Positions 138 through 13,357 of a stretch of DNA of 13,357 nt are shown one piece after another. The translations under genes and the position numbers were made by a program. The stretch's first letter is position 1. The number at the start of each line of letters is the position of its first letter. This DNA comes from Pseudobdellovibrionaceae bacterium. GTDB taxonomy: Bacteria; Bdellovibrionota; Bdellovibrionia; Bdellovibrionales; Bdellovibrionaceae. The stretch spans positions 1 through 13,357 of the forward strand of contig JBGGMM010000111.1 in the NCBI GenBank assembly GCA_041288045.1, in the 5' to 3' direction. A model generated the notes under the pieces. That model was not told the DNA's origin. It searched no databases and saw only the letters and a list, made by a program, of their open reading frames with translations.

Positions 138-560
138 TTACCGAGCGTGAATTTCTCGAGTGTGAGCGGCTCGTCTTGCAGCAGCTTGTCTTTGTGCTGG
201 GCTTCTGTGAGCAGCAGCTTGCTTAGCTTGTCGTGAAAGCGCTCGGCGTGAGACGCTAGATCGAGGCTCACGCTTGAGGGCCTTCAGAACTGCTCTTGAT
301 CTTTTAGGCGAAGCTTTTTTCAAAGTTCGCTTTGCAGTTGCCGATTTTCTTTTTACGCCTAGAGCAGATTTCACTTTCACTCCAGCCCTGCGAGCTTCTG
401 ACAAACCGATAGCAATGGCTTGCTTGGCTGACCTTGCGCCGTGTTTACCACGGCGAATTTTTTTAATTTGGTCATGCACAAATTCACCGGCCTGAGTTGA
501 CGCCGATTTTCCTTGGCGAGCAGCCTTGCGTGCGCGCTTGATCGTTCTTCTTTGTGGCAT
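138..560 (-). CDS. Small, highly basic (Lys/Arg/Ala-rich) DUF6496-like putative nucleic-acid-binding protein, 140 aa
   Basis: Start moved from 608 to ATG at 560, which has an AGGAGG SD at 570-565. The motif GKSASTQAGEFV...GKHGARSAKQAIAIGLSEARRAGV matches my recollection of the DUF6496-type KQAIAI(G/A)LSEAR family. The C-terminal tail is K/R/A-rich and low-complexity. Confidence 0.8.
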   Translation of the reverse strand: MPQRRTIKRARKAARQGKSASTQAGEFVHDQIKKIRRGKHGARSAKQAIAIGLSEARRAGVKVKSALGVKRKSATAKRTLKKASPKRSRAVLKALKREPRSSVSRRALSRQAKQAAAHRSPAQRQAAARRAAHTREIHAR

Positions 561-588
561 AGTGCCTCCTTGTCTAGATACAAGCGTT

Positions 589-604
589 AGCAAGGAGTGC
601 GCCA
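589..604 (-). promoter_or_regulatory. sigma54 (RpoN) -24/-12 promoter for the basic-protein gene
   Basis: Minus strand reads TGGCGCACTCCTTGCT, an exact GG-N10-GC spacing close to the consensus TGGCACG-N4-TTGC(A/T). Predicted TSS near 578, just upstream of the SD (570-565) and ATG (560). Confidence 0.7.
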
Positions 605-1141
605 TCAATGCCGTTCGACCAATCTTTGAAGCTTATCAAACGAAGAGTTCCAACCTTGAACACAGTCATCATGCATTTTCGAAGGAATGCCTTGATGGTG
701 AATAGTCATTTTTGTTTGCTCACTTTCGACCTCACTGAATTCAATAGTGACAAAACCTTCATAGTCATTGGGCCAATCTGCTGACATTCCGGCTTGTTGA
801 GGAGTGATGACCTGACCCTGTTCGTTGGCAAATAGATCTGAGCAGACAATTAATTTATTGGGAATAATTTGTCTGTACTCTCCAGTTCCCCAGACGACTT
901 CGCCTTCTGGTGACTTCATTGCCATGTGGTATTTTCCGCCTTCGCGAAAATCAATATTTGCTGTGGGACATGTAAAGCTCTCAGGTCCCCACCATTGGCG
1001 CATAAATTCGGGGCGGGACCAAGCGGCCCAGAGGCGTTCCACTGGAGCATGGAAAGTTCGGGTGATGTCGACAGTTCGAGTTTCCGTCCACTTTTTTTGG
1101 TTTTCGGTCGTGGGGCTTTTTTGGTTCAGGTTTTCATTCAT
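605..1141 (-). CDS. SRPBCC / AHSA1 (activator of Hsp90 ATPase homolog 1-like, START-fold) domain protein, 178 aa
   Basis: Start moved to ATG at 1141 (MNENLNQ), SD GAGGAG at 1154-1149. Typical AHSA1 motifs: ITRTFHAPVERLWAAWSRPEFMRQWWGP, IDFREGGKY, GEYRQIIPNKLIV, and C-terminal GWNSSFDKL. Confidence 0.9.
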   Translation of the reverse strand: MNENLNQKSPTTENQKKWTETRTVDITRTFHAPVERLWAAWSRPEFMRQWWGPESFTCPTANIDFREGGKYHMAMKSPEGEVVWGTGEYRQIIPNKLIVCSDLFANEQGQVITPQQAGMSADWPNDYEGFVTIEFSEVESEQTKMTIHHQGIPSKMHDDCVQGWNSSFDKLQRLVERH

Positions 1142-1217
1142 AAAACGTCTCCTCGATTTGAGTTCAAATGCATAATCTTTCTGTGAGGGTTGCAAATCCT
1201 GTACACGAATTTTTTCG

Positions 1218-1233
1218 TGGTATGCAAAATGCA
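1218..1233 (+). promoter_or_regulatory. sigma54-like -24/-12 promoter for the NTF2-like gene
   Basis: TGGTATGCAAAATGCA has GG-N10-GC spacing and lies about 50 nt upstream of the ATG at 1286. Confidence 0.55.
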
Positions 1234-1285
1234 AATTTTGTTTGAAAGAGAAAGTGAAAGAAGAAAATAAAAAACGAAGGAGCAT

Positions 1286-1681
1286 ATGATGGCCAATTTA
1301 GAAAACTTAACAAAAGAAATACTCAATCTTGAGAAAAAATACTGGATTGCAATGCAAGAGAAAGATCTTGAAACTGCGATCAGCTTGACTGACTTTCCTT
1401 GTCTTCTTGCAGGTGCACAAGGTGTCTCATCAGTCGATCGAGCTCAATTCGAAAAAATGTTCCAATCGGGGCAAGAATCCATGAGGTCATTTCATTTTGA
1501 TGAAGACAAAGTCGAAGTCCGCCAAGTGGGCCCAGACACCGCTGTGATCGCCTATCCGGTTCACACGACTTTTTTAAAAAACGGAGAAAGTCGCAAGATC
1601 GACGCTGTTGATACTTCCACTTGGATTCGAAGTGGAGACAAATGGCTTTGTGCTATGCACACGGAAACCGAGCTTCACTGA
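1286..1681 (+). CDS. Nuclear transport factor 2-like / DUF4440 (SnoaL-like) protein
   Basis: 131 aa with an AAGGAG SD just upstream (ATG at 1286 or 1289). The pattern EILNLEKKYWIAMQEKD...VRQVGPDTAVIAY...DTSTWIRSGDKWLCAMHTET is typical of the DUF4440/NTF2-like fold. Confidence 0.85.
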   Translation: MMANLENLTKEILNLEKKYWIAMQEKDLETAISLTDFPCLLAGAQGVSSVDRAQFEKMFQSGQESMRSFHFDEDKVEVRQVGPDTAVIAYPVHTTFLKNGESRKIDAVDTSTWIRSGDKWLCAMHTETELH

Positions 1682-1773
1682 CTTAGGTCGGGATGCGCTT
1701 TTGGACTGATAAAAAATATTTCCCTCCCCAAATTCAAGCTTAGAATGAATTCTAGCTTTTCTGGGGAGTAAAG

Positions 1774-4185
1774 ATGTTCAAGTTGAATGGGATTTCAAAT
1801 CGCCGGCTGATGGCGGGATTTGTAGGTGCGGTGTTGTTGTTGGTTGCCATCGGAGCCTACATGCAAAAGACCATTCATGATGTGCAGACTTTCACCAATC
1901 AAAGAGCCGAAGCGCGAAAAGTCGCAATGAAATTGAAAATCTTGCGTGGGCTTCTCTCGGATGCAGAAACCGGGCAAAGGGGATTTTTGCTGACTGGGGA
2001 TGAAAAATACCTTGTTCCCTATCATGAAGCACTTCGCTCAATACCTGAGCATTACAAAGAAATCGAAGCAGCCTTGATTCAACAGCCAGAACAGTCTTCA
2101 CGAATTCTTCAAGCTGAAAAAATCATCGACAATAAATTGGCAGAACTGGCAAAAACGATTGAACTGAAAAAATCCGGGCAAACAAATGAAGCCCTGAGAA
2201 TCGTCAAAAGTGGAGTGGGCCAAGCCGACATGGTTCAACTGCGCGATATTTTGAGATTGATGGATGAAGCGCAACAAGATCTGATCTCTCAGCGCAACAC
2301 TCATATGCAGTCTGTGGTTAGTCAGAGTGTTTTTGTAAATCTCCTTGGAAGTGTTTTTACTGTCATCTTGGTGACAATTCTTTTGGTCCTGTTGATTGGT
2401 AACCAAAGAAGAAGTCGAGAAGCCACAGAAGCTCTCAAAGAGACCAATGAAGCTTTAAAAAAGCAACAGGATCTCTTTTCAAAAATCATCTCGAGCCAAA
2501 ATGACATTGCAACTGCACCATTGAATTCGAAATTACTCATGGATCTAGTCGTGCAAAGATCTTTGGATCTCACACAAGCAGACGGGTCGATTATCGAGAT
2601 CCTTGAAGGAGATAACCTGGTCTATCATCATGCTCACGGTGCGGCCCATGCTTTTCTGGGGATGAAAATCCCTCGAACGGGGAGCTTTTCTGGGCTTTGC
2701 CTGAAAGAAAATAAGACGTTGATCTGCCATGATTCGGAAACCGATGACCGAGTCAATCGAGAGGCTTGTCGCAAAGTCAATTTGCGCTCGATGATTGTGG
2801 TTCCTCTTCAGCATGGCGATCAAGTCATCGGTGTTTTGAAAAATTATTCGGCAACGCCTCATCACTTTGATGATCAGGCTTTCCGAGCGCTGACTTTACT
2901 GACAGGCCTTCTTTCATCCGCTCTCAGTCAAGCTCAAGAATTTGGCGAAAAAATATCTGCCATCGTTGACCTCGAAAAAGCCAAATCCGAGCTGACAATT
3001 TCAAAAGACCAAGCTGAATCCGCGACCCAAGCTAAATCCCGTTTCTTGGCCAATATGAGCCATGAAATTCGCACTCCCTTGAATGGAATCCTCGGCATGA
3101 CGGGTCTTCTTCTCGACGGAGATTTAAGTCCCCAACAGCGAGATTACGGAAATGCGATCAAAACATCAGGGGATTCGCTTTTACGACTGGTGAATGATGT
3201 TTTGGATTTTTCAAAAGTGGAAGCTGGCCACCTTGAATTTGAAAAAGTGAATTTCGATTTGGTGAGCAACCTTCAAGATTTCATCAGATCCTTTACTTTT
3301 GCAGCTCAAAAAAAAAATTTACAGCTTGGTTTAGAGCTGGATCCAAAAATTCCAAATTACGTCAATGGCGACCCAGGACGGCTTCGTCAAATTTTTATGA
3401 ATCTGATCAGCAATTCCATTAAATTCACGCATCAGGGATCTGTCCACCTGAAAGCTTTTTTTATCGGGGAAGAGGCCAAAGGTTTGCATTTTCGTTTTGA
3501 GATTTGTGATACTGGAATTGGCATTTCAAAAGAAGTGATCGGAAATCTTTTTCAGGAATTCGTCCAAGCGGATGCTTCAACCAGTCGCAAATATGGCGGC
3601 ACTGGACTGGGCCTCTCAATCAGCAAACACATGGTCGAGCAAATGTCGGGACAGATCGGAGTTGAATCCGAACCGCAAAAGGGATCCAAATTCTGGTTCA
3701 CTCTTTATCTGCAACCAGTTCAAAAGCAGGAAGTTCCTGAGCCTATCCATCTTGTCACAGAGGATTTTCCTGTCCGGGAAAAACCTTGGAGGATTTTGGT
3801 CGCTGAAGACAATCAGATCAACCAAAAGATCATTTTGGCTTTTCTAGAAAAATTAGGCCTTCGCGCCGATATTGCCGCGAATGGAAAAGAGGTTCTTGAA
3901 TCCCTCGCCAGTCGACCCTACGATTTGATTTTGATGGATTGCCAAATGCCTGAAATGGACGGTTATGAAGCAACGGCCAAAATCCGAGAAAGCAAATCTC
4001 TTCCAGATCCACAGATCCCGATCATTGCCATGACTGCCAATGGCCTGAAAGGTGACCGCGAAAAAACAATCGCTGCCGGCATGAATGATTACATTGCAAA
4101 ACCATTGAACATCAAAATCGTCAAAGCTGTGCTTTTAAGGTGGATTAAGCAAATCGATTCTGAAAGCAAACGATCTGTGTCTTAA
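1774..4185 (+). CDS. Hybrid sensor histidine kinase/response regulator (TM-CHASE3-TM-GAF-HisKA-HATPase-REC)
   Basis: CHASE3 motif LSDAETGQRGFLLTGDEKYL between two hydrophobic segments, then a GAF-like region. H-box FLANMSHEIRTPLNGI, N-box RLRQIFMNLISNSIKFT, G1 DTGIGI, G2 GGTGLGL. Receiver motifs ILVAEDN...LMDCQMPEMDG...AMTA...AKP. SD GGGGAG at 1763-1768. Confidence 0.95.
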   Translation: MFKLNGISNRRLMAGFVGAVLLLVAIGAYMQKTIHDVQTFTNQRAEARKVAMKLKILRGLLSDAETGQRGFLLTGDEKYLVPYHEALRSIPEHYKEIEAALIQQPEQSSRILQAEKIIDNKLAELAKTIELKKSGQTNEALRIVKSGVGQADMVQLRDILRLMDEAQQDLISQRNTHMQSVVSQSVFVNLLGSVFTVILVTILLVLLIGNQRRSREATEALKETNEALKKQQDLFSKIISSQNDIATAPLNSKLLMDLVVQRSLDLTQADGSIIEILEGDNLVYHHAHGAAHAFLGMKIPRTGSFSGLCLKENKTLICHDSETDDRVNREACRKVNLRSMIVVPLQHGDQVIGVLKNYSATPHHFDDQAFRALTLLTGLLSSALSQAQEFGEKISAIVDLEKAKSELTISKDQAESATQAKSRFLANMSHEIRTPLNGILGMTGLLLDGDLSPQQRDYGNAIKTSGDSLLRLVNDVLDFSKVEAGHLEFEKVNFDLVSNLQDFIRSFTFAAQKKNLQLGLELDPKIPNYVNGDPGRLRQIFMNLISNSIKFTHQGSVHLKAFFIGEEAKGLHFRFEICDTGIGISKEVIGNLFQEFVQADASTSRKYGGTGLGLSISKHMVEQMSGQIGVESEPQKGSKFWFTLYLQPVQKQEVPEPIHLVTEDFPVREKPWRILVAEDNQINQKIILAFLEKLGLRADIAANGKEVLESLASRPYDLILMDCQMPEMDGYEATAKIRESKSLPDPQIPIIAMTANGLKGDREKTIAAGMNDYIAKPLNIKIVKAVLLRWIKQIDSESKRSVS

Positions 4186-4254
4186 ATCCGTACTGGTTTT
4201 TTCCTGAAAACAGAGTTTAAATAAATAAACATTTTTGTTTTAAAGGAGACACCT

Positions 4255-4650
4255 ATGATCAAATCCAAACTGCCTTTGATCGCTCGAATCTTGCTTGGCT
4301 TGATTTTTTTCGCTGCCGGGTTGACGGGCCTTTTAAATTTGGTCCCTCCACCTCCGGATCTTCCTGAAAGGCTTCAAACTTTCAATACTGGCCTGATGGC
4401 CTCTGGATATTTCTTCACTCTCTTAAAGCTCACCGAAACGATTTGCGGCGCACTTCTGTTGTCAGGATTTTTTGTCCCCTTGGCGCTGGTGATTTTAGCC
4501 CCGATCAGCTTGAATATCTTTCTTGTGCATGCGTTTTTGGCACCCAGTGGCTTACCCTTAGCAATTGTCATCGGACTTCTTTTGATTTACCTCTCTTTCT
4601 TTGCGCAACCCTACTCTTCGGTGGTGAAGCAATTGTTTCGCGCCAAATAA
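4255..4650 (+). CDS. DoxX family membrane protein
   Basis: 131 aa with about four hydrophobic helices; N-terminal ARILLGLIFFAAGL and LKLTETICGALLLSG. SD AAGGAG at 4243-4248. Confidence 0.85.
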   Translation: MIKSKLPLIARILLGLIFFAAGLTGLLNLVPPPPDLPERLQTFNTGLMASGYFFTLLKLTETICGALLLSGFFVPLALVILAPISLNIFLVHAFLAPSGLPLAIVIGLLLIYLSFFAQPYSSVVKQLFRAK

Positions 4651-4663
4651 AAGAAGGTCACAA

Positions 4664-5146
4664 ATGAACAAGTCCCAATATTGCTTTCAATCCAAGATCG
4701 GACCGCTTTTCCTTGTGGCGTCAGTGGAAGGTCTCGAGGGCGTTTATTGGGATGAGCAACTGATTCCAATGATTTCAACTTTGGAAGCTCTCGATACTGA
4801 GACTCAAATTTTAAAACAAGCCGCTTCTCAATTGGCCGAATACTTGGATGGGAAGCGAAAAGAATTTGATCTGCCTTTGGCAGCTTTTGGTACAGAATTT
4901 CAACACTTAGTCTGGAATGAGCTCAAAAAAATTCCATATGGGAAAACTTTCTCCTACAGCGAAATTGCCCAGAGATTGAAAAATGAAAAAGCAGTCCGAG
5001 CCGTCGGAACAGCCAATGGCAAAAATCCACTTTGCATTATCGTTCCCTGCCATCGGGTCATTTCTGCCGACGGAAGTCTAGGTGGTTACTCAGGCGGGTT
5101 GCAGATCAAATCACAATTGCTCGAAATCGAAAGTCGTCATCACTGA
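4664..5146 (+). CDS. ogt: Methylated-DNA--[protein]-cysteine S-methyltransferase (O6-alkylguanine DNA alkyltransferase)
   Basis: Active-site IIVPCHRVI, plus GTEFQHLVWNELKKIPYG, AVRAVGTANGKNP and LGGYSGG. No Ada zinc/AraC N-terminal domain. Starts 13 nt after the DoxX stop, so probably co-transcribed. Confidence 0.95.
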   Translation: MNKSQYCFQSKIGPLFLVASVEGLEGVYWDEQLIPMISTLEALDTETQILKQAASQLAEYLDGKRKEFDLPLAAFGTEFQHLVWNELKKIPYGKTFSYSEIAQRLKNEKAVRAVGTANGKNPLCIIVPCHRVISADGSLGGYSGGLQIKSQLLEIESRHH

Positions 5147-5228: not shown

Positions 5229-5255
5229 TCAAGCTTCCTAGACCTTAGCCGATAG
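5229..5255 (+). promoter_or_regulatory. sigma28 (FliA)-type promoter upstream of pilin A
   Basis: TCAA-N15-GCCGATAG against the consensus TAAA-N15-GCCGATAA. The spacing is exact and the site ends 58 nt before the ATG at 5314. Confidence 0.7.
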
Positions 5256-5313
5256 GTCATTCAGACATTGGTCGAGGTCCCTTAAAGACAAACACGACCT
5301 TTGTCCTAGGACT

Positions 5314-5841
5314 ATGAAAAATTGGATTCGGTTTGTTCTCATTTCATCTTTGCTTTTACTGCCAGCTGCGAACGCTGCAGACACCGCAATCGCTGGCTTT
5401 AATGTCAGCGGAACAGTACCGACATTTTTCAGTGTTACCACTCGTGGCATGCCGGGGGATTTGGATCTGACTCCGAAAGTGATCGTCAACAATCGGCGAA
5501 TTGGACTTTTGCATTTTAAATACAATGCCAATATTGCCAATCTCACTGTTTCCAGCAGCACTGCCAGTGGTGGACCTGAAGGAACCAGTGGAGCTTACAA
5601 CTTTCAAGGTGGATTCAAAGTCAGCATCAGTGCTGGTTGTTCCTCCGTGGATGCCGCTTACAACACTCCTTTCGTCCTGACGGCGGCTGGTACTGATGTG
5701 AAAAGTGCAGCTTCAGCGGCACTTTTGAATGGAGTCGAAGAGGATTGCGAAGTTCTCGCCAGTTGGAAAGGCACCAATACGACACTGCCATTAGCAGGTG
5801 TGTACGCTCTAAATATCAACGTCACCATGGTTTCTCAGTAA
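5314..5841 (+). CDS. Putative chaperone-usher pilin subunit A (secreted, 175 aa)
   Basis: Sec signal peptide (MKNWIRF...PAANA). Mature N-terminus has alternating hydrophobic residues like a donor strand (ADTAIAGFNVSGTVP). One Cys pair. C-terminal beta strand AGVYALNINVTMVSQ. First gene before the chaperone and usher; paralog of 11128-11706. Confidence 0.8.
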   Translation: MKNWIRFVLISSLLLLPAANAADTAIAGFNVSGTVPTFFSVTTRGMPGDLDLTPKVIVNNRRIGLLHFKYNANIANLTVSSSTASGGPEGTSGAYNFQGGFKVSISAGCSSVDAAYNTPFVLTAAGTDVKSAASAALLNGVEEDCEVLASWKGTNTTLPLAGVYALNINVTMVSQ

Positions 5842-5861
5842 CCCAGACCCACCTGCATTTC

Positions 5862-5889
5862 TTGCAAATCATTGTTTTGCCTTTATAAT
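5862..5889 (+). promoter_or_regulatory. sigma70-type promoter for the chaperone-usher-tip genes
   Basis: TTGCAA-N16-TATAAT (perfect -10) in the pilin A/chaperone intergenic gap, followed by an AGGAGG SD at 5904-5909. Confidence 0.55.
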
Positions 5890-5917
5890 ATTTAAAGCAT
5901 TGCAGGAGGCTTCAAGG

Positions 5918-6664
5918 ATGAAGACGTCTGTTCTCTCGTTGTTGATTTTTTTTCTCAGTTCCATGGCGCAAGCTGGATTTGATTTTAGTCCCATCATTGC
6001 CAACCTAGATCCATCCGGACAGGGAGCGACGGGCGCTTTCACAGTCAGCAATTCTGAAATGACGAAGCTGGCAGTTCAAGTGACCATTGTGCCCCGAGAA
6101 CCTGATTTGAGTGGCAAAGAAGAATACAAAGAATCAGATAAAATCGATGAAATTTTTCGGATTTTTCCAAGCCAGCTTGTCCTGGGACCGAAAGAAACTC
6201 GAACGATTCGTGTGACTTATGTGGGAGCTCCGCAAGTGACTACCGAGCTTGCGTTTCGGATCATTGCCGAAGAGCTTCCAGTTGATTTGGATGATCCCAA
6301 TAAAGTTTACACCAAAGCAGTCGCCAAAATCACTTTGGCCACTCGCTATATCGGCTCTTTGTACGTGACGCCGAAAGCTGCAAAACCTGAAATCGTGATC
6401 GAAGCGAAAAAATCAGAGACGGCTTCAAACGATTTGATTATCGATGTCACCAACAAAGGCACGGCTCATCAAGTTTATCGAAAGCCAACAGTCAAAATCC
6501 TTTCAAAAGCTTCTGGAAAAGAAGTTCAACTCACGGAAGAGGAAATCAAGCCTTTCATGAGCCAGAATATTCTGGCCGGTCGCACTCGACGCTTCACTTT
6601 GCCTTGGCCGAAGAATCTACCTCCTGGCCCCTTGAAGGTCTCTGTTGATGCGCCTAAAGAGTAA
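5918..6664 (+). CDS. Periplasmic pilus assembly chaperone (PapD-like), 248 aa
   Basis: Start moved to ATG 5918 (MKTSVLSL), 8 nt after AGGAGG. Signal peptide ends MAQA. PapD_N-type motifs FSPIIANL, FTVSN, FRIFPSQLVLGPKETRTIRV, ELAFRIIAEELP, SLYVTP, VTNKGTAH. Contains no cysteine. Confidence 0.9.
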   Translation: MKTSVLSLLIFFLSSMAQAGFDFSPIIANLDPSGQGATGAFTVSNSEMTKLAVQVTIVPREPDLSGKEEYKESDKIDEIFRIFPSQLVLGPKETRTIRVTYVGAPQVTTELAFRIIAEELPVDLDDPNKVYTKAVAKITLATRYIGSLYVTPKAAKPEIVIEAKKSETASNDLIIDVTNKGTAHQVYRKPTVKILSKASGKEVQLTEEEIKPFMSQNILAGRTRRFTLPWPKNLPPGPLKVSVDAPKE

Positions 6665-6673
6665 TGTTTTTTT

Positions 6674-9600
6674 TTGCTCTTGAGTTCGCTCACCTGGGCG
6701 AACTCGGCTGTGGTTTACGATATTGGGCGGATTGATTCTGCTAAAGGCGTCAACGTCCGCTCGTCGATGACTCTCAATTCTAAAATTCTTGGCATGCTCT
6801 ATCCCAAAGACTCCTTTGCGGTCGCACCGAAAAATGATTGGTATGTGATTTTGGACGGCCCTTACACTGGTGGCTATGTTCGTCATGAATTGGTGAAGCT
6901 TGTCGGTGAAAAGTATTCCTTGAAAAAAGTCGCGGCCCAATCGGTCCGTGTCCGTGCTTCTGCAACTGAGCGAGCACCCGTGAAAGGAAGCCTCAACACC
7001 AATGATGTCTTCGCTGGTGAGAAAAAAGGTGATTGGTTTGAAATCAAAGACGGCCCCATGAGGGGTGGCTTTGTCAGTGCTCAATTTATTTCGGATTTGG
7101 ATGCATTGCCTGAGCGTGATGCCACACCGGAGCAAGCCACCGTTCAAGGAAATGAAACTCCAATCATTGTGGATTCCAATGCGCCTGCAGAGCCGGCACT
7201 CAAAGCTGAATCAACAGATGCAACATTGGCCTCTGCAGCTACAACTGAGCCGACAACGACGACAACACTTCCATCTCCAGCTCCACCTCCAGCTCCACCT
7301 CCAACTGCGAGTGCATTTTCACAAGGTTTGGTCATCGCAAAAAATTCGGTGAATGTCAGGCAAGCTCCAACAACAAAAAGCCCGACAGTGGGAAGCGCCT
7401 CACCAGGTCTTACTTTTGAAGTCGAACCAGCAGGAGAGGGTTGGTATAAGATTCAGTCTGGCCTCAACAAAGGCCGTTACATTTCAGCTCCGTTTGTGAA
7501 AATCAATTCGCCGACTGAATCGGCCTCAGCTGCGGGAGCTTCTGCCAAGCCCACGGTCGCCAATTCAACCTTTGCACCCAGCCCCAATTGGGATTCAAAA
7601 ACAGAAAAAATATTTCAGGATCAAGTTGATAAAGTCTTTAAGAAAAAAGCCAAGCCTGAAGATGAAAACCATGTGGTGATGCCTGTTTATTTCGAGGATC
7701 GTTCAATTTCATTGGGTCAAATCGACAGCCGCATTCGTCAAGGCCAGCCCTTGTTGGTGGACTCTTTGACCCTGTTCAAATACTTGCGCCTGCTTTTGCT
7801 CCGTGAATGGTTCGATAAACCTCAGATCACAGCCATCAATCCCGAGGGAATCAAAGATCCTCAAGAAATCAGCAAAAGGCGATGGCTGTCCCTGGATCAA
7901 TTTGCTGAAACCGGAATCAAAGTCACTTTTGATCCCGCCCAATTGGATGTCATCATTTCCGTGCCGCCGGCTTTGCGCGCCCCAAGTGTGGCTTCGATCA
8001 TCAAGGGCGATCGCAATGTCGATGATGCAGCTCAAGCTGATCCGGCTTCTTTGTTCAGCTCCTATTTGAATATTTACGCCAGCGAAACTTTTGATACTCG
8101 CTACAAGGAATTTGACGACCATCGATTGCCGATGAAAGCTCAGCTTGAAAATGGCACCAACCTCGGCGGCGTTGTCATGGAGGCTTACGGTCGTTATCTC
8201 GAAGACCGCACAAATCAAAATCCTGACTCCACTGGCTTTGCGCGCGGTGATGTACGATTGGTGAAAGACTTTCCAGGTGGATCTGCAAGGTCATCTGTCG
8301 GGGATTTGGTTTATCCCACGCAAGGATTTCAAACCTTCCGTCCCATGGCGGGGGCTTCAGTCACTACCAATTTCACCATGTCGAGGTCCCGACTGACCTA
8401 TCCGACGGGAAACTACGACATCTTTTTGCAGAGAAATTCGAAAGTCTATATTTGGCTGAACGATCAACTTCAACAGGTTTTAGATCTTCCGGCTGGCCGC
8501 CACTCCCTCCGGGATTTTCCTTTCGTCAGCGGTGCCAATGATCTTCGTTTGGAAATTGTCGATGATGTTGGACGTGAAGAAACTGTTCGTTACTCTTACT
8601 TCTCCAGCACAGAAATGCTAAAGACGGGATTGAATCAATTCAATTATTCGGTCGGAGCTCCCTCTGAGGATATTGGCAATCAGAGAATTTATGACAGTTC
8701 CAAGACCACATTGACCGCTTTTCATCGCTACGGCCTGACAGAAGATTTAACAGTCGGTGCAAACGTTCAAAATGACCACTTGCAGACAGTCGCGGGCCTT
8801 GAGGGAATGATGTCGACATCATTTGGATTCTTGAAATTGGAGCCAGCTGTTTCTATTTTGAATAGTGAAACTGGTGGCGCCGTTCGAGGAAGTTACAGTT
8901 ATTCCGATTACAAAGGGATCATGAAAACCCAGAGAACTTATCGCTTGAGCTTCGTGCATGAGGGGGCAAGCTTTGCTCCTCTCAGCCAAAACGCGTCTTT
9001 GCCTGTGGTGACTCGCACTTTTGAACTGACTGGAGGTTACACTCAAGGCCTCAGTCGAAATCTTTCAGTGAATTTCAACGCTTCGGTCCGCAATCTGGCA
9101 AGCGCTTTAGGAAATCAGGATGCCTTTACAATTGGAGTAGGCGCCAATCGCAAGTGGGATGGTGGTCAATCTGTCAATGCAACCATCTCTCATAACAAAA
9201 CAACGGCAGGTGATGAAGACATCAATGTGTTTCTTTTCTTTCTTTGGGCCTTTCCGAAAGAAAAGCAAATTGTCACTGCCATTCATAATACGTCCGATTC
9301 TTCAAGCCGCTTGGATTGGAGCTACAATCCCTCCGCAGCTGCGGATTCATCCAGTTACGGAGCTTCGTTGCGAGACACCGATTCAGAGCGTGGTTACAGC
9401 GCTCAAATTCTTCATGATGGAAATCGAACGCGCTCCTCTCTGGCCCACGAAGTCGCAATTAGCAAGATTGCCGATCCGACTGCGACCGGTGATGATGTGA
9501 ATAAAAAACCAACCAGTCATACAACGTCTTTGAATGTGGCAACGTCTTTGGCTTTTGCTGGTGGACATTTCGCAATTGGTCGGCCTGTGACAGACAGTTT

Positions 9601-10117
9601 TGCAATCATTGCGCCGGTTAAAAATTTGCGAGGACAGCGCCTGGATGTCAATCCTCAAGGAGAAGAGGCTTATGCGGCCAAATCGGATCTTTTGGGGCCA
9701 GCCCTCTTGCCTGAGATCGGATCTTACAATTTTACTGAAATCACAATCAGTGGCAAAAAACTTCCACCACAATTGGCAGTGCCAAGAGATCACTTTTCAG
9801 TCTATCCTGGGTACAAGAGTGGTTATGCATTTGAAATCGGGACAGATGCGACCGTTTACCTGATGGCGAAATTGGTAGATGGACAAGGCCAGCCATTAGG
9901 GCTTGCTGCTGGAACGGCGATTTATCTGGATGATGATAAACAGGAACCTGTGACGATCTTTACCAACAAAAAGGGCGTGCTCAGTTCCGAAGGCTTCAAA
10001 CCGGGACGTTACAGATTCGAAGTTGCAACCGACGTGTTTGAGCCGCTTGAAATCACGATTCCTGAATCGGCTAAAGACAACTTTGATTTGGGAACTTTAA
10101 AGCTAAAGGCGAAATAA
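6674..10117 (+). CDS. Fimbrial outer-membrane usher with three N-terminal SH3b-like domains; likely true start is ATG 6648, separated by a frameshift in the T9 tract at 6667-6675
   Basis: Usher hallmarks from about residue 335: plug region FLQRNSKVYIWLNDQLQQVLDLPAGRHSLRDFPFVSGANDLRLEIVDDVGREE, barrel strands LKTGLNQFNYSVG and FHRYGLTEDLTVG, LAFAGGHFAIGRPVTDSFAII, and C-terminal domain LVDGQGQPL. Residues about 18-277 hold three repeats of V(N/R)VR...W(Y/F)xI...G(G/R)(Y/F)(V/I)xxx(L/F). Confidence 0.92.
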   Translation: MLLSSLTWANSAVVYDIGRIDSAKGVNVRSSMTLNSKILGMLYPKDSFAVAPKNDWYVILDGPYTGGYVRHELVKLVGEKYSLKKVAAQSVRVRASATERAPVKGSLNTNDVFAGEKKGDWFEIKDGPMRGGFVSAQFISDLDALPERDATPEQATVQGNETPIIVDSNAPAEPALKAESTDATLASAATTEPTTTTTLPSPAPPPAPPPTASAFSQGLVIAKNSVNVRQAPTTKSPTVGSASPGLTFEVEPAGEGWYKIQSGLNKGRYISAPFVKINSPTESASAAGASAKPTVANSTFAPSPNWDSKTEKIFQDQVDKVFKKKAKPEDENHVVMPVYFEDRSISLGQIDSRIRQGQPLLVDSLTLFKYLRLLLLREWFDKPQITAINPEGIKDPQEISKRRWLSLDQFAETGIKVTFDPAQLDVIISVPPALRAPSVASIIKGDRNVDDAAQADPASLFSSYLNIYASETFDTRYKEFDDHRLPMKAQLENGTNLGGVVMEAYGRYLEDRTNQNPDSTGFARGDVRLVKDFPGGSARSSVGDLVYPTQGFQTFRPMAGASVTTNFTMSRSRLTYPTGNYDIFLQRNSKVYIWLNDQLQQVLDLPAGRHSLRDFPFVSGANDLRLEIVDDVGREETVRYSYFSSTEMLKTGLNQFNYSVGAPSEDIGNQRIYDSSKTTLTAFHRYGLTEDLTVGANVQNDHLQTVAGLEGMMSTSFGFLKLEPAVSILNSETGGAVRGSYSYSDYKGIMKTQRTYRLSFVHEGASFAPLSQNASLPVVTRTFELTGGYTQGLSRNLSVNFNASVRNLASALGNQDAFTIGVGANRKWDGGQSVNATISHNKTTAGDEDINVFLFFLWAFPKEKQIVTAIHNTSDSSSRLDWSYNPSAAADSSSYGASLRDTDSERGYSAQILHDGNRTRSSLAHEVAISKIADPTATGDDVNKKPTSHTTSLNVATSLAFAGGHFAIGRPVTDSFAIIAPVKNLRGQRLDVNPQGEEAYAAKSDLLGPALLPEIGSYNFTEITISGKKLPPQLAVPRDHFSVYPGYKSGYAFEIGTDATVYLMAKLVDGQGQPLGLAAGTAIYLDDDKQEPVTIFTNKKGVLSSEGFKPGRYRFEVATDVFEPLEITIPESAKDNFDLGTLKLKAK
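7275..7303 (+). repeat. 12-bp tandem repeat (CTCCAGCTCCAC, about 2.4 copies) encoding PAPPPAPPP in the usher linker
   Basis: Read directly: ctccagctccac ctccagctccac ctcca. Preceded by an ACA/ACG run encoding five Thr. Confidence 0.85.
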
Positions 10118-10118
10118 A

Positions 10119-11096
10119 ATGAAAATACAAAAAAAATTCGCACTTTCAGTGATTCGAAATCTGATATTGGGATTTTCTTTGACCTTTTTTTTCTCGCAAG
10201 CTCAGGCCGCCTGCGGATTGACGATCACCACTGATGACATCAGTCTCACATGGGGCCTCAATTTTTCATCCATTGCTGTGCCGATCACCATCAATCGTTC
10301 CACTGCCGATGCTTGTAATTATGCTCTTGGATTCACCAAGGGAAACGGAGCCTCCTATGTCGCTCGTCGTGCCGCCAATGGCAGCAATACACTGAGTTAT
10401 CAGCTTTATAAAGACACGGGACTGTCAAAAATTTTGAAGGACAATCCCGACATCACAACAATTGATGACGTGGTGGACGGTGGGTTTTTAGCAGGTGCAA
10501 TCCCAGTTTCTCAAACCGTGAACTATTACTTTGATATTCCCTATGCGTCGGCAACCACGCCGGTAATGGTGTCCAGCGGAACTTACACAGATAATTTCAC
10601 TCTCAATCTGTATGAGGGGAGTGGTCCTCCCTTCGGGACTTTGGTCGCTTCGAAAGGGGTCAACATCACTGTGACTGTGCCAAAGATGATTGCGCTTTCA
10701 CTGGTGGATCCGGGTGCTCCTTATCAGCAGGGACAGCTTTCCAAAAATGTGAACTTTGGGACGATGACAGAGGGATCTGCCGCCAATGTGGATTTGCGGC
10801 TTCGAACCAATGCCGGCTTCAGCGTCACATTTTCTTCTGCCAATAATGGAAAAATGAAGCACACTTCGCCAGGCAAAAATTCGTTGGTTCCCTATAGCTT
10901 AATGGTCAACGGGGCGACTTTGAATCTTTCTAATAGCAGCACGGTTCCGGTCGTGGGTCTGACGGGAAGTGGATCGACAGCTTTATCTGGTTTGGGTTAT
11001 CCGATTAAGGTCGTGATTGGCAGTGTGACAGGCCCGACAGTTCTAGGGGGACCGCATTCAGATGACATAACGATAACGGCGACCACAACAGAGTAA
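10119..11096 (+). CDS. Two-domain spore-coat-protein-U (SCPU/Csu-like) pilus tip subunit / adhesin
   Basis: Signal peptide ends AQA. Mature protein starts ACGLTI, with no donor strand, and has a Cys pair. SCPU-like motifs CNYALGF...RRAANGSNTLSYQLYKD...SGTYTDNFTLNL. Second Ig-like domain VNFGTM...LVPYSLMVNG...GPHSDDITIT. Starts 1 nt after the usher stop (TAA-A-ATG), suggesting coupling. Confidence 0.85.
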   Translation: MKIQKKFALSVIRNLILGFSLTFFFSQAQAACGLTITTDDISLTWGLNFSSIAVPITINRSTADACNYALGFTKGNGASYVARRAANGSNTLSYQLYKDTGLSKILKDNPDITTIDDVVDGGFLAGAIPVSQTVNYYFDIPYASATTPVMVSSGTYTDNFTLNLYEGSGPPFGTLVASKGVNITVTVPKMIALSLVDPGAPYQQGQLSKNVNFGTMTEGSAANVDLRLRTNAGFSVTFSSANNGKMKHTSPGKNSLVPYSLMVNGATLNLSNSSTVPVVGLTGSGSTALSGLGYPIKVVIGSVTGPTVLGGPHSDDITITATTTE

Positions 11097-11127
11097 GGTC
11101 GCCGATCGTTTCTTTGAAAAATTCAGA

Positions 11128-11706
11128 TTAGATAGAAACCATTGTCATAGTCAGAGCGAGAGTATACTTTCCAGCAAGTGGAAGAGTTGTATTGGTTCCC
11201 TTCCAAGTCGCACCCAAAGTGCAATCTTCTTCTCGACCTTGAGTCATACCAACTGTTGTCGCGCCATCTTTAATGTCAACACCAGTTCCGATGTCAACTT
11301 TACCAGCGCCGACTCCAGGAGTGAAAAGAGCTTTATAAGTACCTAAGATTGTTGTGCAAGCTCCGAATTTCAATTGGAAGCCACCAGCACCGAAGCTATA
11401 GCCTGTTCCTGCACCAGTTGTGCTTGATGGAACACCGTCTACTTCAGCAGATTTCAGTGTGAGACTTGCGAGGTCCACATTGTATTTGAAATGAAAAATT
11501 CCTACCAATCGGTCAACGACGTCAACTTTACCAGAAAGGTCCAGGTCGCCAGGATAACCACGAGCAGTGATGCTGAAAATCACTGGAACGTTACCGCTGA
11601 TGTTCAGATTGGCGATGGATGTATCCGCTGCCAGAGCTGCCATCGGCATGAAAAGTTGTGCGGCGAACAGAAGGGCTGCACTCAGTAGTTTTACTAGGAA
11701 TTTCAT
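11128..11706 (-). CDS. Putative chaperone-usher pilin subunit B (paralog of pilin A; candidate major pilin), 192 aa
   Basis: Signal peptide ends ALA; mature start ADTSIANLNISGNVP. Shares PGDLDL, HFKYN, EEDC, WKGTNTTLPLAG and TMVS with 5314-5841 and has the same Cys pair. GGAG SD preceded by an A/C-rich tract. Confidence 0.8.
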   Translation of the reverse strand: MKFLVKLLSAALLFAAQLFMPMAALAADTSIANLNISGNVPVIFSITARGYPGDLDLSGKVDVVDRLVGIFHFKYNVDLASLTLKSAEVDGVPSSTTGAGTGYSFGAGGFQLKFGACTTILGTYKALFTPGVGAGKVDIGTGVDIKDGATTVGMTQGREEDCTLGATWKGTNTTLPLAGKYTLALTMTMVSI

Positions 11707-11731
11707 TTTACTTCTCCGTTGTTGTTTTTTT

Positions 11732-11755
11732 GAGCTCGCTCACTTTCACGAGCTC
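11732..11755 (-). promoter_or_regulatory. 5'-UTR stem-loop of pilin B mRNA
   Basis: GAGCTCG-N10-CGAGCTC, a perfect 7-bp stem a few nt downstream of the predicted sigma28 TSS (about 11759). On the coding strand it is followed by A7, not a U-tract. Confidence 0.5.
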
Positions 11756-11765
11756 TGTACTCAGC

Positions 11766-11793
11766 ATATCGTTCGCCATTTAAAAAAACTTGA
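11766..11793 (-). promoter_or_regulatory. sigma28-like promoter upstream of pilin B
   Basis: Minus strand TCAAGTTT-TTTTAAATGGCG-AACGATAT. The extended -35 is good (consensus TAAAGTTT) and the CGATA core of the -10 is present, but the spacer is 1 nt longer than canonical and the -10 is degenerate. Confidence 0.45.
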
Positions 11794-12016: not shown

Positions 12017-13357
12017 ATGCTTCCCTCTCAAACTCCGGTTTTGATTGTCGGAGCAGGGCCCACAGGGCTTGTGTTGGCGCTTTGGTTGACTAAAATTGGG
12101 ATCAAAGTTCGCTTGATCGATAAATCTTCAGGTCCAGGGCTCACATCTCGAGCGATTGTTGTTCACGCTCGCACTCTTGAATTCTACCGGCAATTGGGAA
12201 TTGCGGACGAAGTGATTGCCCGCGGTTTTGAATTTCCTCATCTCAACCTATGGGTCAATCATCAACGAAGAGCGCAGGTTTCTCTCGGGCAGACGGGGAG
12301 GAGGCTGAGCCCTTATTCTTTTGTGTTGATTTTCCCCCAAGACGAACACGAAGTGTTTTTAATTGAGCGGCTAAAAAATCTTGGCGTTGAAGTTGAAAGA
12401 CAGACTGAGCTTCTGTCCTTTCAACAGGAAAAAGATCAAGTTCACTTTCAGCTTCGTTTGCCCTCAGGTGAAACCGAAAACGGATCTGCTCTTTATCTGG
12501 CAGGTTGTGATGGAGCGAAATCACGAGTTCGCGAAGTTTTAAACACTGGCTTTGAGGGCAGTACCTATCCCGATCTTTTCTATGTTGCCGACATTCGCGG
12601 ACAAGGGCCGGCTCTTAATGGCGAGCTTCACCTCTCGTTAGATCAATCCGATTTTTTGGCGATCTTTCCGCTGAAGGAAAAAGGGCATGCACGCCTTATT
12701 GGGGTGATTCGTGAAAATGAATCTGGAAGGTCTCTCCGGTGGGAAGATGTGAACCCGAGAATTCTCAGAGAAATGGATATTCAAGTCGACGAAGTGAAGT
12801 GGTTTTCCACCTATCACGTGCATCACCGAGTGGCCTCACATTTTCAAGTGGGACGAGCTTTTTTATTGGGCGATGCTGGACATATTCACTCTCCCGTAGG
12901 CGGCCAAGGAATGAACACTGGGATTGGCGATGCCGTGAATTTGGCGTGGAAATTAGGTGAAGTCTTAAAAGGCGAAAGTTCAGAGGAACTTTTAGAATCC
13001 TACGAAGCGGATCGAATGCCATTTGCAAAACTTTTGGTGAGGACTACGGATCAGGCTTTTAAAGTTGTTTCCTCACCTGGACCCTGGGCGCAATTTGTTC
13101 GCACTCGAGTCATTCCATGGCTTTTACCAGCTGCTTTCCAGTTTGAATTTTTGAGATATTTTCTTTTCCGTACAGTTTCTCAAACTGGAATTTCTTACCG
13201 TCATGCTCTTGCTGGTCTCGGCCAAAAATTACAGCCAGGTGATCGCTTGCCGTGGATCGAGAGCGTGGATAATTTCACTCCTCTGAAAACTCTAGCTTGG
13301 CAAGTCCATGTCTATGGAAAAAAGACTGTGAAAAAAAAAAAAAAAAACACCCCAGTT
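12017..13357 (+). CDS. FAD-dependent monooxygenase (FAD_binding_3, PheA/TfdB-like aromatic hydroxylase family), 3'-partial
   Basis: Translated by hand; open from ATG 12017 (SD AAGGAG at 12006-12011) to the window end. Motifs VLIVGAGPTGLVLA, SRAIVVHARTLE, LAGCDGAKSRVRE, RAFLLGDAGHIHSPVGGQGMNTGIGDAVNLAWKL and PGDRLPW. Absent from the ORF track because it has no stop codon in the window. Confidence 0.93.
   Translation, partial: MLPSQTPVLIVGAGPTGLVLALWLTKIGIKVRLIDKSSGPGLTSRAIVVHARTLEFYRQLGIADEVIARGFEFPHLNLWVNHQRRAQVSLGQTGRRLSPYSFVLIFPQDEHEVFLIERLKNLGVEVERQTELLSFQQEKDQVHFQLRLPSGETENGSALYLAGCDGAKSRVREVLNTGFEGSTYPDLFYVADIRGQGPALNGELHLSLDQSDFLAIFPLKEKGHARLIGVIRENESGRSLRWEDVNPRILREMDIQVDEVKWFSTYHVHHRVASHFQVGRAFLLGDAGHIHSPVGGQGMNTGIGDAVNLAWKLGEVLKGESSEELLESYEADRMPFAKLLVRTTDQAFKVVSSPGPWAQFVRTRVIPWLLPAAFQFEFLRYFLFRTVSQTGISYRHALAGLGQKLQPGDRLPWIESVDNFTPLKTLAWQVHVYGKKTVKKKKKNTPV

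Follow-up and report, generated by a model that had tools for sequence, protein, structure and literature searches.

Does a predicted pilus locus from a soil bacterium, with a pilin gene at either end and an usher that carries SH3b repeats, encode a true chaperone-usher (CU) system, and how would such a system be expressed, exported and held in place? The locus lies in a 13,357-nucleotide stretch of Pseudobdellovibrionaceae DNA (hereafter the window; GenBank assembly GCA_041288045.1, contig JBGGMM010000111.1), which is an entire contig (C111) of a metagenome-assembled genome (MAG; 2.89 Mb, 83% complete). The initial annotation, made from the sequence alone, had read five open reading frames (ORFs) here as pilin A, a chaperone, an usher and a tip subunit on the plus strand and pilin B on the minus strand, and all five are present (Table 1). 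Domain matches of the usher, the chaperone and the tip, together with the fold of the pilin, support the CU identity, and we are highly confident that the locus belongs to the CU pathway and works like a non-classical CU pilus. Beyond that, we consider it reasonably probable that the five genes build an adhesive CU pilus, one whose expression FliA is predicted to switch on while the cell swims freely and which the SH3b repeats of the usher likely tether to the wall of the cell itself.

A chaperone-usher locus with a modular usher

The usher matches the Pfam family Usher (PF00577) above the cut-off (E 4.6e-11) and SH3_3 with E 6.5e-17. Its AlphaFold2 model, built from a 24-row alignment (predicted local distance difference test, pLDDT, 78.5; predicted template modeling score 0.54), runs from a tandem SH3 pair through a disordered linker, a third SH3 and a second linker into the N-terminal domain, barrel, plug and C-terminal domains, and Foldseek matched it to FimD (E 1.2e-31) and PapC (E 1.4e-28). 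Searches of PDB sequences with the usher barrel and pilin profiles returned no match. With the chaperone family profile (20 rows), CsuC was found at E 7.7e-11 and EcpB at E 0.12; the conserved Arg motif of CsuC aligns in the chaperone, and a match to TcfA was weak (E 7e-8) and far under the cut-off.

In the tip subunit, an SCPU domain (Pfam, residues 27-162) is followed by a pilin-like second half, in which the profile of the sister pilins covers residues 212-321 (E 6e-10). Such a two-domain terminal tip gene, together with a highly translated donor-strand pilin, fits a tipped filament and makes it very unlikely that the locus specifies a non-fimbrial surface coat or a type IV pilus accessory, like the Myxococcus spore-coat CU system or Synechocystis CccSP, for which non-pilus roles are reported (PMC4390875, 10.1101/130278, PMC13734109). 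Although the nearest annotated usher is cyanobacterial (30% identity), as a coat or accessory might lead one to expect, the Leptolyngbya locus shows no tip gene.

The three SH3 repeats of the usher were matched one by one in Pfam (E 3e-5, 7e-4 and 2e-8) and were modeled as three folded domains with pLDDT of about 90, and the Pro/Thr/Ala linkers around the third are disordered in the model (pLDDT <50). By comparison with known folds, the tandem pair resembles the C-terminal region of the clostridial phage endolysin 4krt (phmmer E 0.036, Foldseek E 3.7e-5). The fusion of SH3 domains to an usher is thus supported. An N-terminal extension of about 330 aa with three SH3b-like repeats had been proposed; the three repeats stood, and the length was revised, because SH3-less relatives align from usher residue ~307 and the SH3-specific extension is therefore about 300 aa.

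By repeat profile, SH3b repeats occur in 1 to 5 copies in 14 of the 76 ushers examined, all within one subclade, a count in which two single-repeat ushers look N-terminally truncated and some rows are identical or near-identical proteins. The ten SH3-bearing ushers in the tree (P0007 to P0013, G307, G524 and this locus) form one branch with support 94, and the SH3-less G376 usher is its sister. This pattern reads as one gain of the tandem pair, after which single repeats were added on Pro/Thr linkers. Both the SH3b-usher fusion and the predicted FliA coupling of the pilin genes, described below, are apparently unreported features of one subclade. No publication on an SH3-usher or a Bdellovibrio CU system was found among the titles listed in searches of open-access PMC and bioRxiv, and the subscription literature may already place the environmental clade of ushers in sigma.

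Ushers of the outer membrane are not known to be anchored to the wall. Their N-terminal domain is periplasmic in FimD and PapC, and the SH3b repeats, placed before it on flexible linkers, are predicted from family membership to bind peptidoglycan, which would brace or position the pore. That they bind a protein partner or prey material, and not the cell's own peptidoglycan, seems rather unlikely. Their sequence matches to characterized wall-binding SH3b domains are weak (E 0.036 to 0.75) and related SH3 domains were not found elsewhere among the host ORFs, which leaves some room for another ligand; however, the domains match SH3_3 and the Bacillus wall-binding Ent models, their copy number of 1 to 5 is as in avidity modules, and a position before a domain that is periplasmic in FimD and PapC puts them out of reach of prey.

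Table 1. Features of the locus and of its surroundings in the window
Feature	Position	Strand	Remarks
FliA (sigma28)-type motif, pilin A and operon	5229-5254	+	10 of 11 matches to TTAAG-N15/16-CCGATA
Pilin A	5314-5841	+	175 aa; Sec signal; likely minor subunit
Periplasmic chaperone, non-classical, CsuC-like	5918-6664	+	PapD_N E 7e-6, above cut-off; database start also 5918
Conserved overlapping usher start and T9 run	6645-6675	+	TTG 6645/ATG 6648; T9 run 6667-6675; from junction comparison with relatives
Usher open frame	6674-10117	+	1147 aa; three SH3b, linkers, N-terminal domain, barrel with plug, C-terminal domains
Tandem SH3b pair	6713-7099	+	Usher residues 14-77 and 80-142; conserved core of the fusion
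Third SH3b	7313-7504	+	Usher residues 214-277; SH3_3 E 2e-8; flanked by Pro/Thr/Ala linkers
Two-domain tip subunit	10119-11096	+	CsuE/CupE6-like by size and position; SCPU E 4.8e-11
Pilin B	11128-11706	-	192 aa; Sec signal; likely major shaft subunit
FliA-type motif, pilin B	11767-11793	-	9 of 11 matches
Ordinary neighbors: DUF6496, AHSA1/SRPBCC, DUF4440, CHASE3-GAF hybrid histidine kinase	within 138-5146 and 12017-13357		Pfam
Further ordinary neighbors: DoxX, O6-methylguanine methyltransferase, FAD monooxygenase	within 138-5146 and 12017-13357		Pfam

Promoter motifs and two unequal pilins

Each pilin gene had been credited with its own sigma28-like promoter. We found FliA-type motifs at both genes, and across the family such motifs are above chance. 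According to PMC3627812, TTAAG-N16-CCGATA marks 92 of 140 attack-phase promoters in Bdellovibrio bacteriovorus; we scanned for this consensus with a spacer of 15 or 16 and ≤150 nt upstream. At least 9 of the 11 positions matched at 22 of 27 family pilin genes versus 75 of 1317 host ORFs, and at least 10 matched at 10 and 21 of them, respectively. At the threshold of 9, shuffled sequences gave a mean of 1.1 (maximum 5) and reverse complements gave 0/27, while the sister-type pilins, scanned over a slightly wider stretch, had no FliA motif (0/17). Spacers vary among relatives and the boxes persist; those of pilin B recur in L049, its orthologue from the same genus, at another spacing. The host genome encodes fliA and flagellins.

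The two pilins share 48% identity and gave no sequence match in Pfam, NCBIfam or PDB. None of the 68 family pilins matched SCPU (PF05229) at E up to 1, and the only SCPU link in the Atlas was a cluster with 15% SCPU. The pilin family is small, since its profile found 52 matches at E up to 0.001 among 1.84 billion representatives. The mature pilin A (AlphaFold2, 68 rows, positions 5377-5838; pLDDT 93.8) was modeled as a beta-sandwich with residues 1-17 free. Among the 20 best Foldseek matches shown, all except one are CU subunits (E 1.8e-3 to 1.8e-2), with CfaB at the top followed by Caf1, FimA and others, and VIA gave Z values of 8.1 for archaeal cannulae, 7.9 for TLP-1b, 6.4 for CfaE/B and 6.2 for CsuA/B, which the tool itself rates as middling. 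As for the incomplete immunoglobulin fold expected of a CU pilin, the model is a CU-pilin-like sandwich with a free N-terminal strand, the scores being modest and from whole-fold comparison. In the alignment, the N terminus is hydrophobic at mature positions 8, 10, 14, 18 and 20 in every row, Gly12 is kept in 71 of 78 and Pro15 in 77 of 78, and a G-x-Y alternating strand ends the protein; in sequence terms, this alternating N terminus and the G-x-Y last strand fit donor-strand complementation. TLP-1b, the second-best structural match (12% identity), is an environmental filament from cryo-electron microscopy, and the Atlas neighbors of the pilin A model include hypothetical proteins of Patescibacteria and Nanobdellota.

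The pilins differ in their translation signals. The Shine-Dalgarno duplex was calculated at -6.6 kcal/mol for pilin B versus -1.8 kcal/mol for pilin A, and among 1517 ORFs pilin B ranks at the 89th percentile by codon adaptation index (CAI) and pilin A at the 22nd. Pilin B thus has the better ribosome-binding site and the more marked codon bias, which fits a major role for B and a minor one for A and weakens the earlier idea of interchangeable shafts. It is accordingly doubtful that A and B are alternative shafts with the central cassette inverted between them. Each pilin has its own motif, the loci carry one to three pilin copies, A-like pilins precede the cassette in four loci and follow it in three, and the pilin tree hints, with weak support, that A-like genes swapped ends between lineages; yet the split of pilin types is itself weak (73/88), a position-based clade is not rejected (approximately unbiased [AU] test, p-AU 0.117), and orthologues of both A and B are kept in a same-genus genome (70% and 65%). 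Cassette inversion was not established by the pilin tree. Recent gene conversion between the two genes was also considered and rejected, the shared C-terminal motif differing at synonymous sites.

Pilin B belongs to the locus, because the inward layout recurs in relatives: an inward second pilin follows the tip in 8 of the 13 loci with both cassette ends visible (this one, G405, G376, G346, G307 with two such pilins, G644, G675 and L046, the layouts of G405 and G675 being joined over two contigs by inference). The other five loci are G518, G007, G173, G254 and G205; G512 and four fragments are cut and were excluded from the count. The initial annotation had also held this inward-facing pilin to be distinctive, which was not supported here. 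Of another 20 usher regions from the order, 7 have a pilin facing the far end of the cassette (L111, L112, L114, L115, L117, L126 and L130), and inward-facing extra pilin-like genes lie past the tip on an Acinetobacter plasmid with SCPU pilins (L107:6754-7233) and on a Novosphingobium plasmid (L071:8143-8574).

Other arrangements were seen along the way. In four sister loci (L115, L117, L124 and L130), either tip and pilin are read in the direction of the usher or there are two chaperones, and in genus g3 a sister CU locus of chaperone, usher, tip and a single opposite-strand pilin lies beside mreB (L111:4503-9158 in G164, L112:4039-8715 in G099). An apparent usher-tip fusion in G254 proved to be an artefact of an N gap. 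Sigma-70 and terminator scans gave nothing beyond shuffles (8 versus 6.6 and 9 versus 8.4, respectively), and no strong hairpin was found in the gap between tip and pilin B.

The usher start and the T9 run

Sec signals, intact or restorable, had been assigned to all five proteins, although an out-of-frame usher start may instead mean that the locus is off or decaying. By inspection, four have signal-like N termini, while that of the usher is broken by a frameshift at the T9 run. In the junctions of 14 relatives, the usher frame opens ~20 nt inside the chaperone gene in 11, at the stop overlap in one and just after it in two. Here this conserved start is one base out of frame across T9: translation from 6645/6648 gives a basic and then hydrophobic N terminus, and the usher body lies one base off. 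The run is reproduced in the contigs of both runs compared (2/2) and is therefore no error of this assembly; an assembly error was rejected on the basis of 0 gaps in both, which come from one study and of which one may be the source sample itself. A full-length exported usher would therefore need a one-base slip in transcription or replication, and such a slip would give low or switchable piliation. Directly 3' of T9, a 12-pair hairpin at 6680-6707 could affect slippage or translation from the usher start.

The database entry for this usher protein begins inside the signal region, and gene calls are likewise clipped there in P0002, P0005 and the three listed full-length members of the P0003 cluster besides this usher; these are the nearest ushers (57-70% identical). 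P0004, by contrast, begins with a short hydrophobic stretch, and full signal peptides are present in P0006, P0009, P0010 and P0013. Since the gene calls of the closest relatives are clipped alike, slippage, phase variation and decay are each compatible with the break, and this copy may be off.

Homopolymer runs such as T9 and A9 are prone to slipping. It is possible, though we lean against it, that slippage or phase variation at the T9 break is programmed and conserved, and that it tunes the amount of usher or turns piliation on and off. An upstream start would come into frame if one base were gained (start 6645/6648) or lost (ATG 6664), runs of 9 are tenfold rarer than runs of 8 in the host genome (43 versus 415), and the clipped calls of close relatives point the same way. 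However, no length variant was seen in the contigs, which tend to drop rare alleles; the clipped N termini may be choices of the gene caller; long ORFs contain 27 of the 51 runs of 9-11, so that such runs are tolerated; and all three frames are used at the relatives' junctions, suggesting drift. Pilus switching by replication slippage has a precedent in Gram-positive sortase pili, as described in PMC9187656.

We think it unlikely, without dismissing it, that this is a genuine CU system which is dead or decaying here, with the T9 deletion as an ordinary loss of function in a patchy accessory locus. Both runs assembled to the allele with the out-of-frame start, the left-over in-frame TTG yields only 9 residues ahead of the predicted cleavage site, the G376 usher is split by a frameshift at an A9 run (L017:8874-8913), the G515 family pilin (L031:1062-1610) has one internal TAA, and the pilin family occurs in just 13 of 384 genomes of the order (8 of 401 sampled from the phylum). 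On the other hand, no damage is seen in the remaining 1147 codons, in the four partner genes or in either promoter motif, and a private mutation would not explain calls clipped at the same place in P0002, the P0003 cluster and P0005, gene calls though these are.

In the wall-held pilus that we favor, FliA would transcribe pilin A, chaperone, usher and tip together and, apart from them, pilin B, so that a shaft subunit could be made in excess. As in other members of the pathway, the subunits would cross by Sec and be capped by the CsuC-like chaperone, and the usher would thread the tip first and then the pilins by donor-strand exchange, with the shaft presumably built mainly of pilin B, and pilin A as a minor component. 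Several points weigh against this picture. Promoter use, SH3b binding and pilus assembly are all predicted from sequence and models. The frameshifted ushers of this locus and of G376, like the interrupted G515 pilin, argue in the same direction, and a pilin match is absent in 6 of 8 same-genus genomes. Most family ushers carry no SH3, so the SH3 domains are dispensable. For the promoters, host flagellin genes reach 9 of 11 within 150 nt in just 1 of 7 cases, which makes for a weak positive control of the motif test; the 27 pilins are related to one another and their start codons were picked by hand; and two score-9 matches (L022 and L021_A) look like chance. For the pilins, the fold scores are middling, none reaches a Foldseek E of 0.001, the top VIA match is to archaeal cannulae and not to a CU pilin, and the CAI reference set has just 9 genes. 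Finally, predation by the host is suggested by its taxonomic placement only, and the earlier proposal of prey attachment is conjectural. A bolder picture seems improbable to us: some predatory Bdellovibrionales would deploy an attack-phase CU pilus that grips prey or surfaces and is absent from the described kit of the model strain, with its usher lashed to the cell's own peptidoglycan by a variable SH3b array and rationed or switched by a conserved slippage site in the signal peptide.

Host, relatives and comparison with known systems

The host is a Bdellovibrionales bacterium of soil, the source of the MAG being a soil metagenome run; the suggested Bdellovibrionota-type host is borne out. 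Close database proteins carry the names Pseudobdellovibrionaceae, Bdellovibrionales and Oligoflexia, and the closest genome having the locus, G405, is of the same genus. The five proteins match the host assembly at this locus alone, and the usher is the sole usher there. The FAD monooxygenase, methyltransferase and kinase next to the locus show no conservation beside the relatives' loci and were excluded from its parts. T20 and A17 runs stand at the contig ends and are probably assembly edges.

Ushers were found in 60 of 384 genomes of the order. In the gene table of B. bacteriovorus HD100, Bd0216 and Bd0217 leave no space between them for the CU locus found at this site in sister genomes, and the word 'usher' had 0 matches in three supplement files of PMC3627812, the HD100 whole genome not being searched by name. 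In the FastTree analysis (68 ushers, four of 72 being dropped as redundant or partial, with long ones trimmed to the last 830 aa), the focal family forms one side of a branch with support 100 and comprises 23 ushers, which supports the proposed uncharacterized CU subfamily; it is nested among ushers of Cyanobacteria, Alphaproteobacteria, Vibrionaceae, a metagenome contig and other Bdellovibrionales. In the best tree of the IQ-TREE analysis (29 rows), 14 environmental ushers form one branch (100/100), sister to two alpha references (96/96, on a long branch) and outside six plasmid ushers of SCPU or allied type, and a grouping with the SCPU ushers was not rejected by the AU test (p-AU 0.151). 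The sigma references are annotated plasmid loci, with CsuD, CupE5 and MXAN_3883 not among the rows, and the clade labels of the references are those we take to be correct. TcfC domain matches were sub-threshold in 7 of 19 full ushers, and CooC_C gave none. The usher is thus less new than had been claimed: by sequence it is part of a wide environmental clade, with which both an alpha and a sigma grouping are compatible.

A broad usher clade between the alpha and sigma groupings would be a gap in the six-clade classification. With SH3b gained once and then varied between 1 and 5 copies, load bearing or positioning of a CU pore becomes testable, and the FliA motif links a CU system to the phase in which predatory bacteria hunt, where prey recognition is an open question. 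The related genus g3 has many complete genomes, and 26 of 44 examined carry a sister locus, so that work on the wider clade is likely feasible in cultured strains.

Compared with known systems, the usher shares its entire architecture by fold with FimD and PapC, from which it differs in sequence (12-15% identity), in its separate clade and in the N-terminal SH3b repeats that those lack. The order pilin-chaperone-usher-tip is that of the archaic sigma systems Csu (Acinetobacter baumannii) and CupE (Pseudomonas aeruginosa), with which the locus also shares a chaperone closest to CsuC, an SCPU-domain tip and an N-terminal donor strand; unlike them, its shaft pilins have no SCPU match, its usher falls outside the SCPU-type plasmid ushers in the best tree, and SH3b repeats and FliA motifs are present. 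The alpha pili (CFA/I, ECP and Tcf) resemble it through CfaB as best Foldseek match of the pilin, the sister position of EcpC to the usher clade, the weak TcfA match of the chaperone and the sub-threshold TcfC matches, but EcpB is a poor match, the tip is SCPU-type, and no CfaB/EcpA-family pilin is found by sequence; moreover, the alpha branch is very long and a sigma grouping of the usher is compatible with the AU test. The uncharacterized loci of Leptolyngbya, Niveispirillum, Indioceanicola, Novosphingobium, Vibrio, Photobacterium and other Bdellovibrionales differ in having no SH3 repeats and another pilin subfamily (HHalign probability 86%), and the Bdellovibrionales sister loci carry no FliA motif, unlike this family. 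Nevertheless, these environmental loci share one usher clade with the present locus, with usher identities of 25-30%, chaperone matches of E 1e-45 to 1e-12, Pfam-silent or weak-SCPU pilins and, often, a pilin on the opposite strand.

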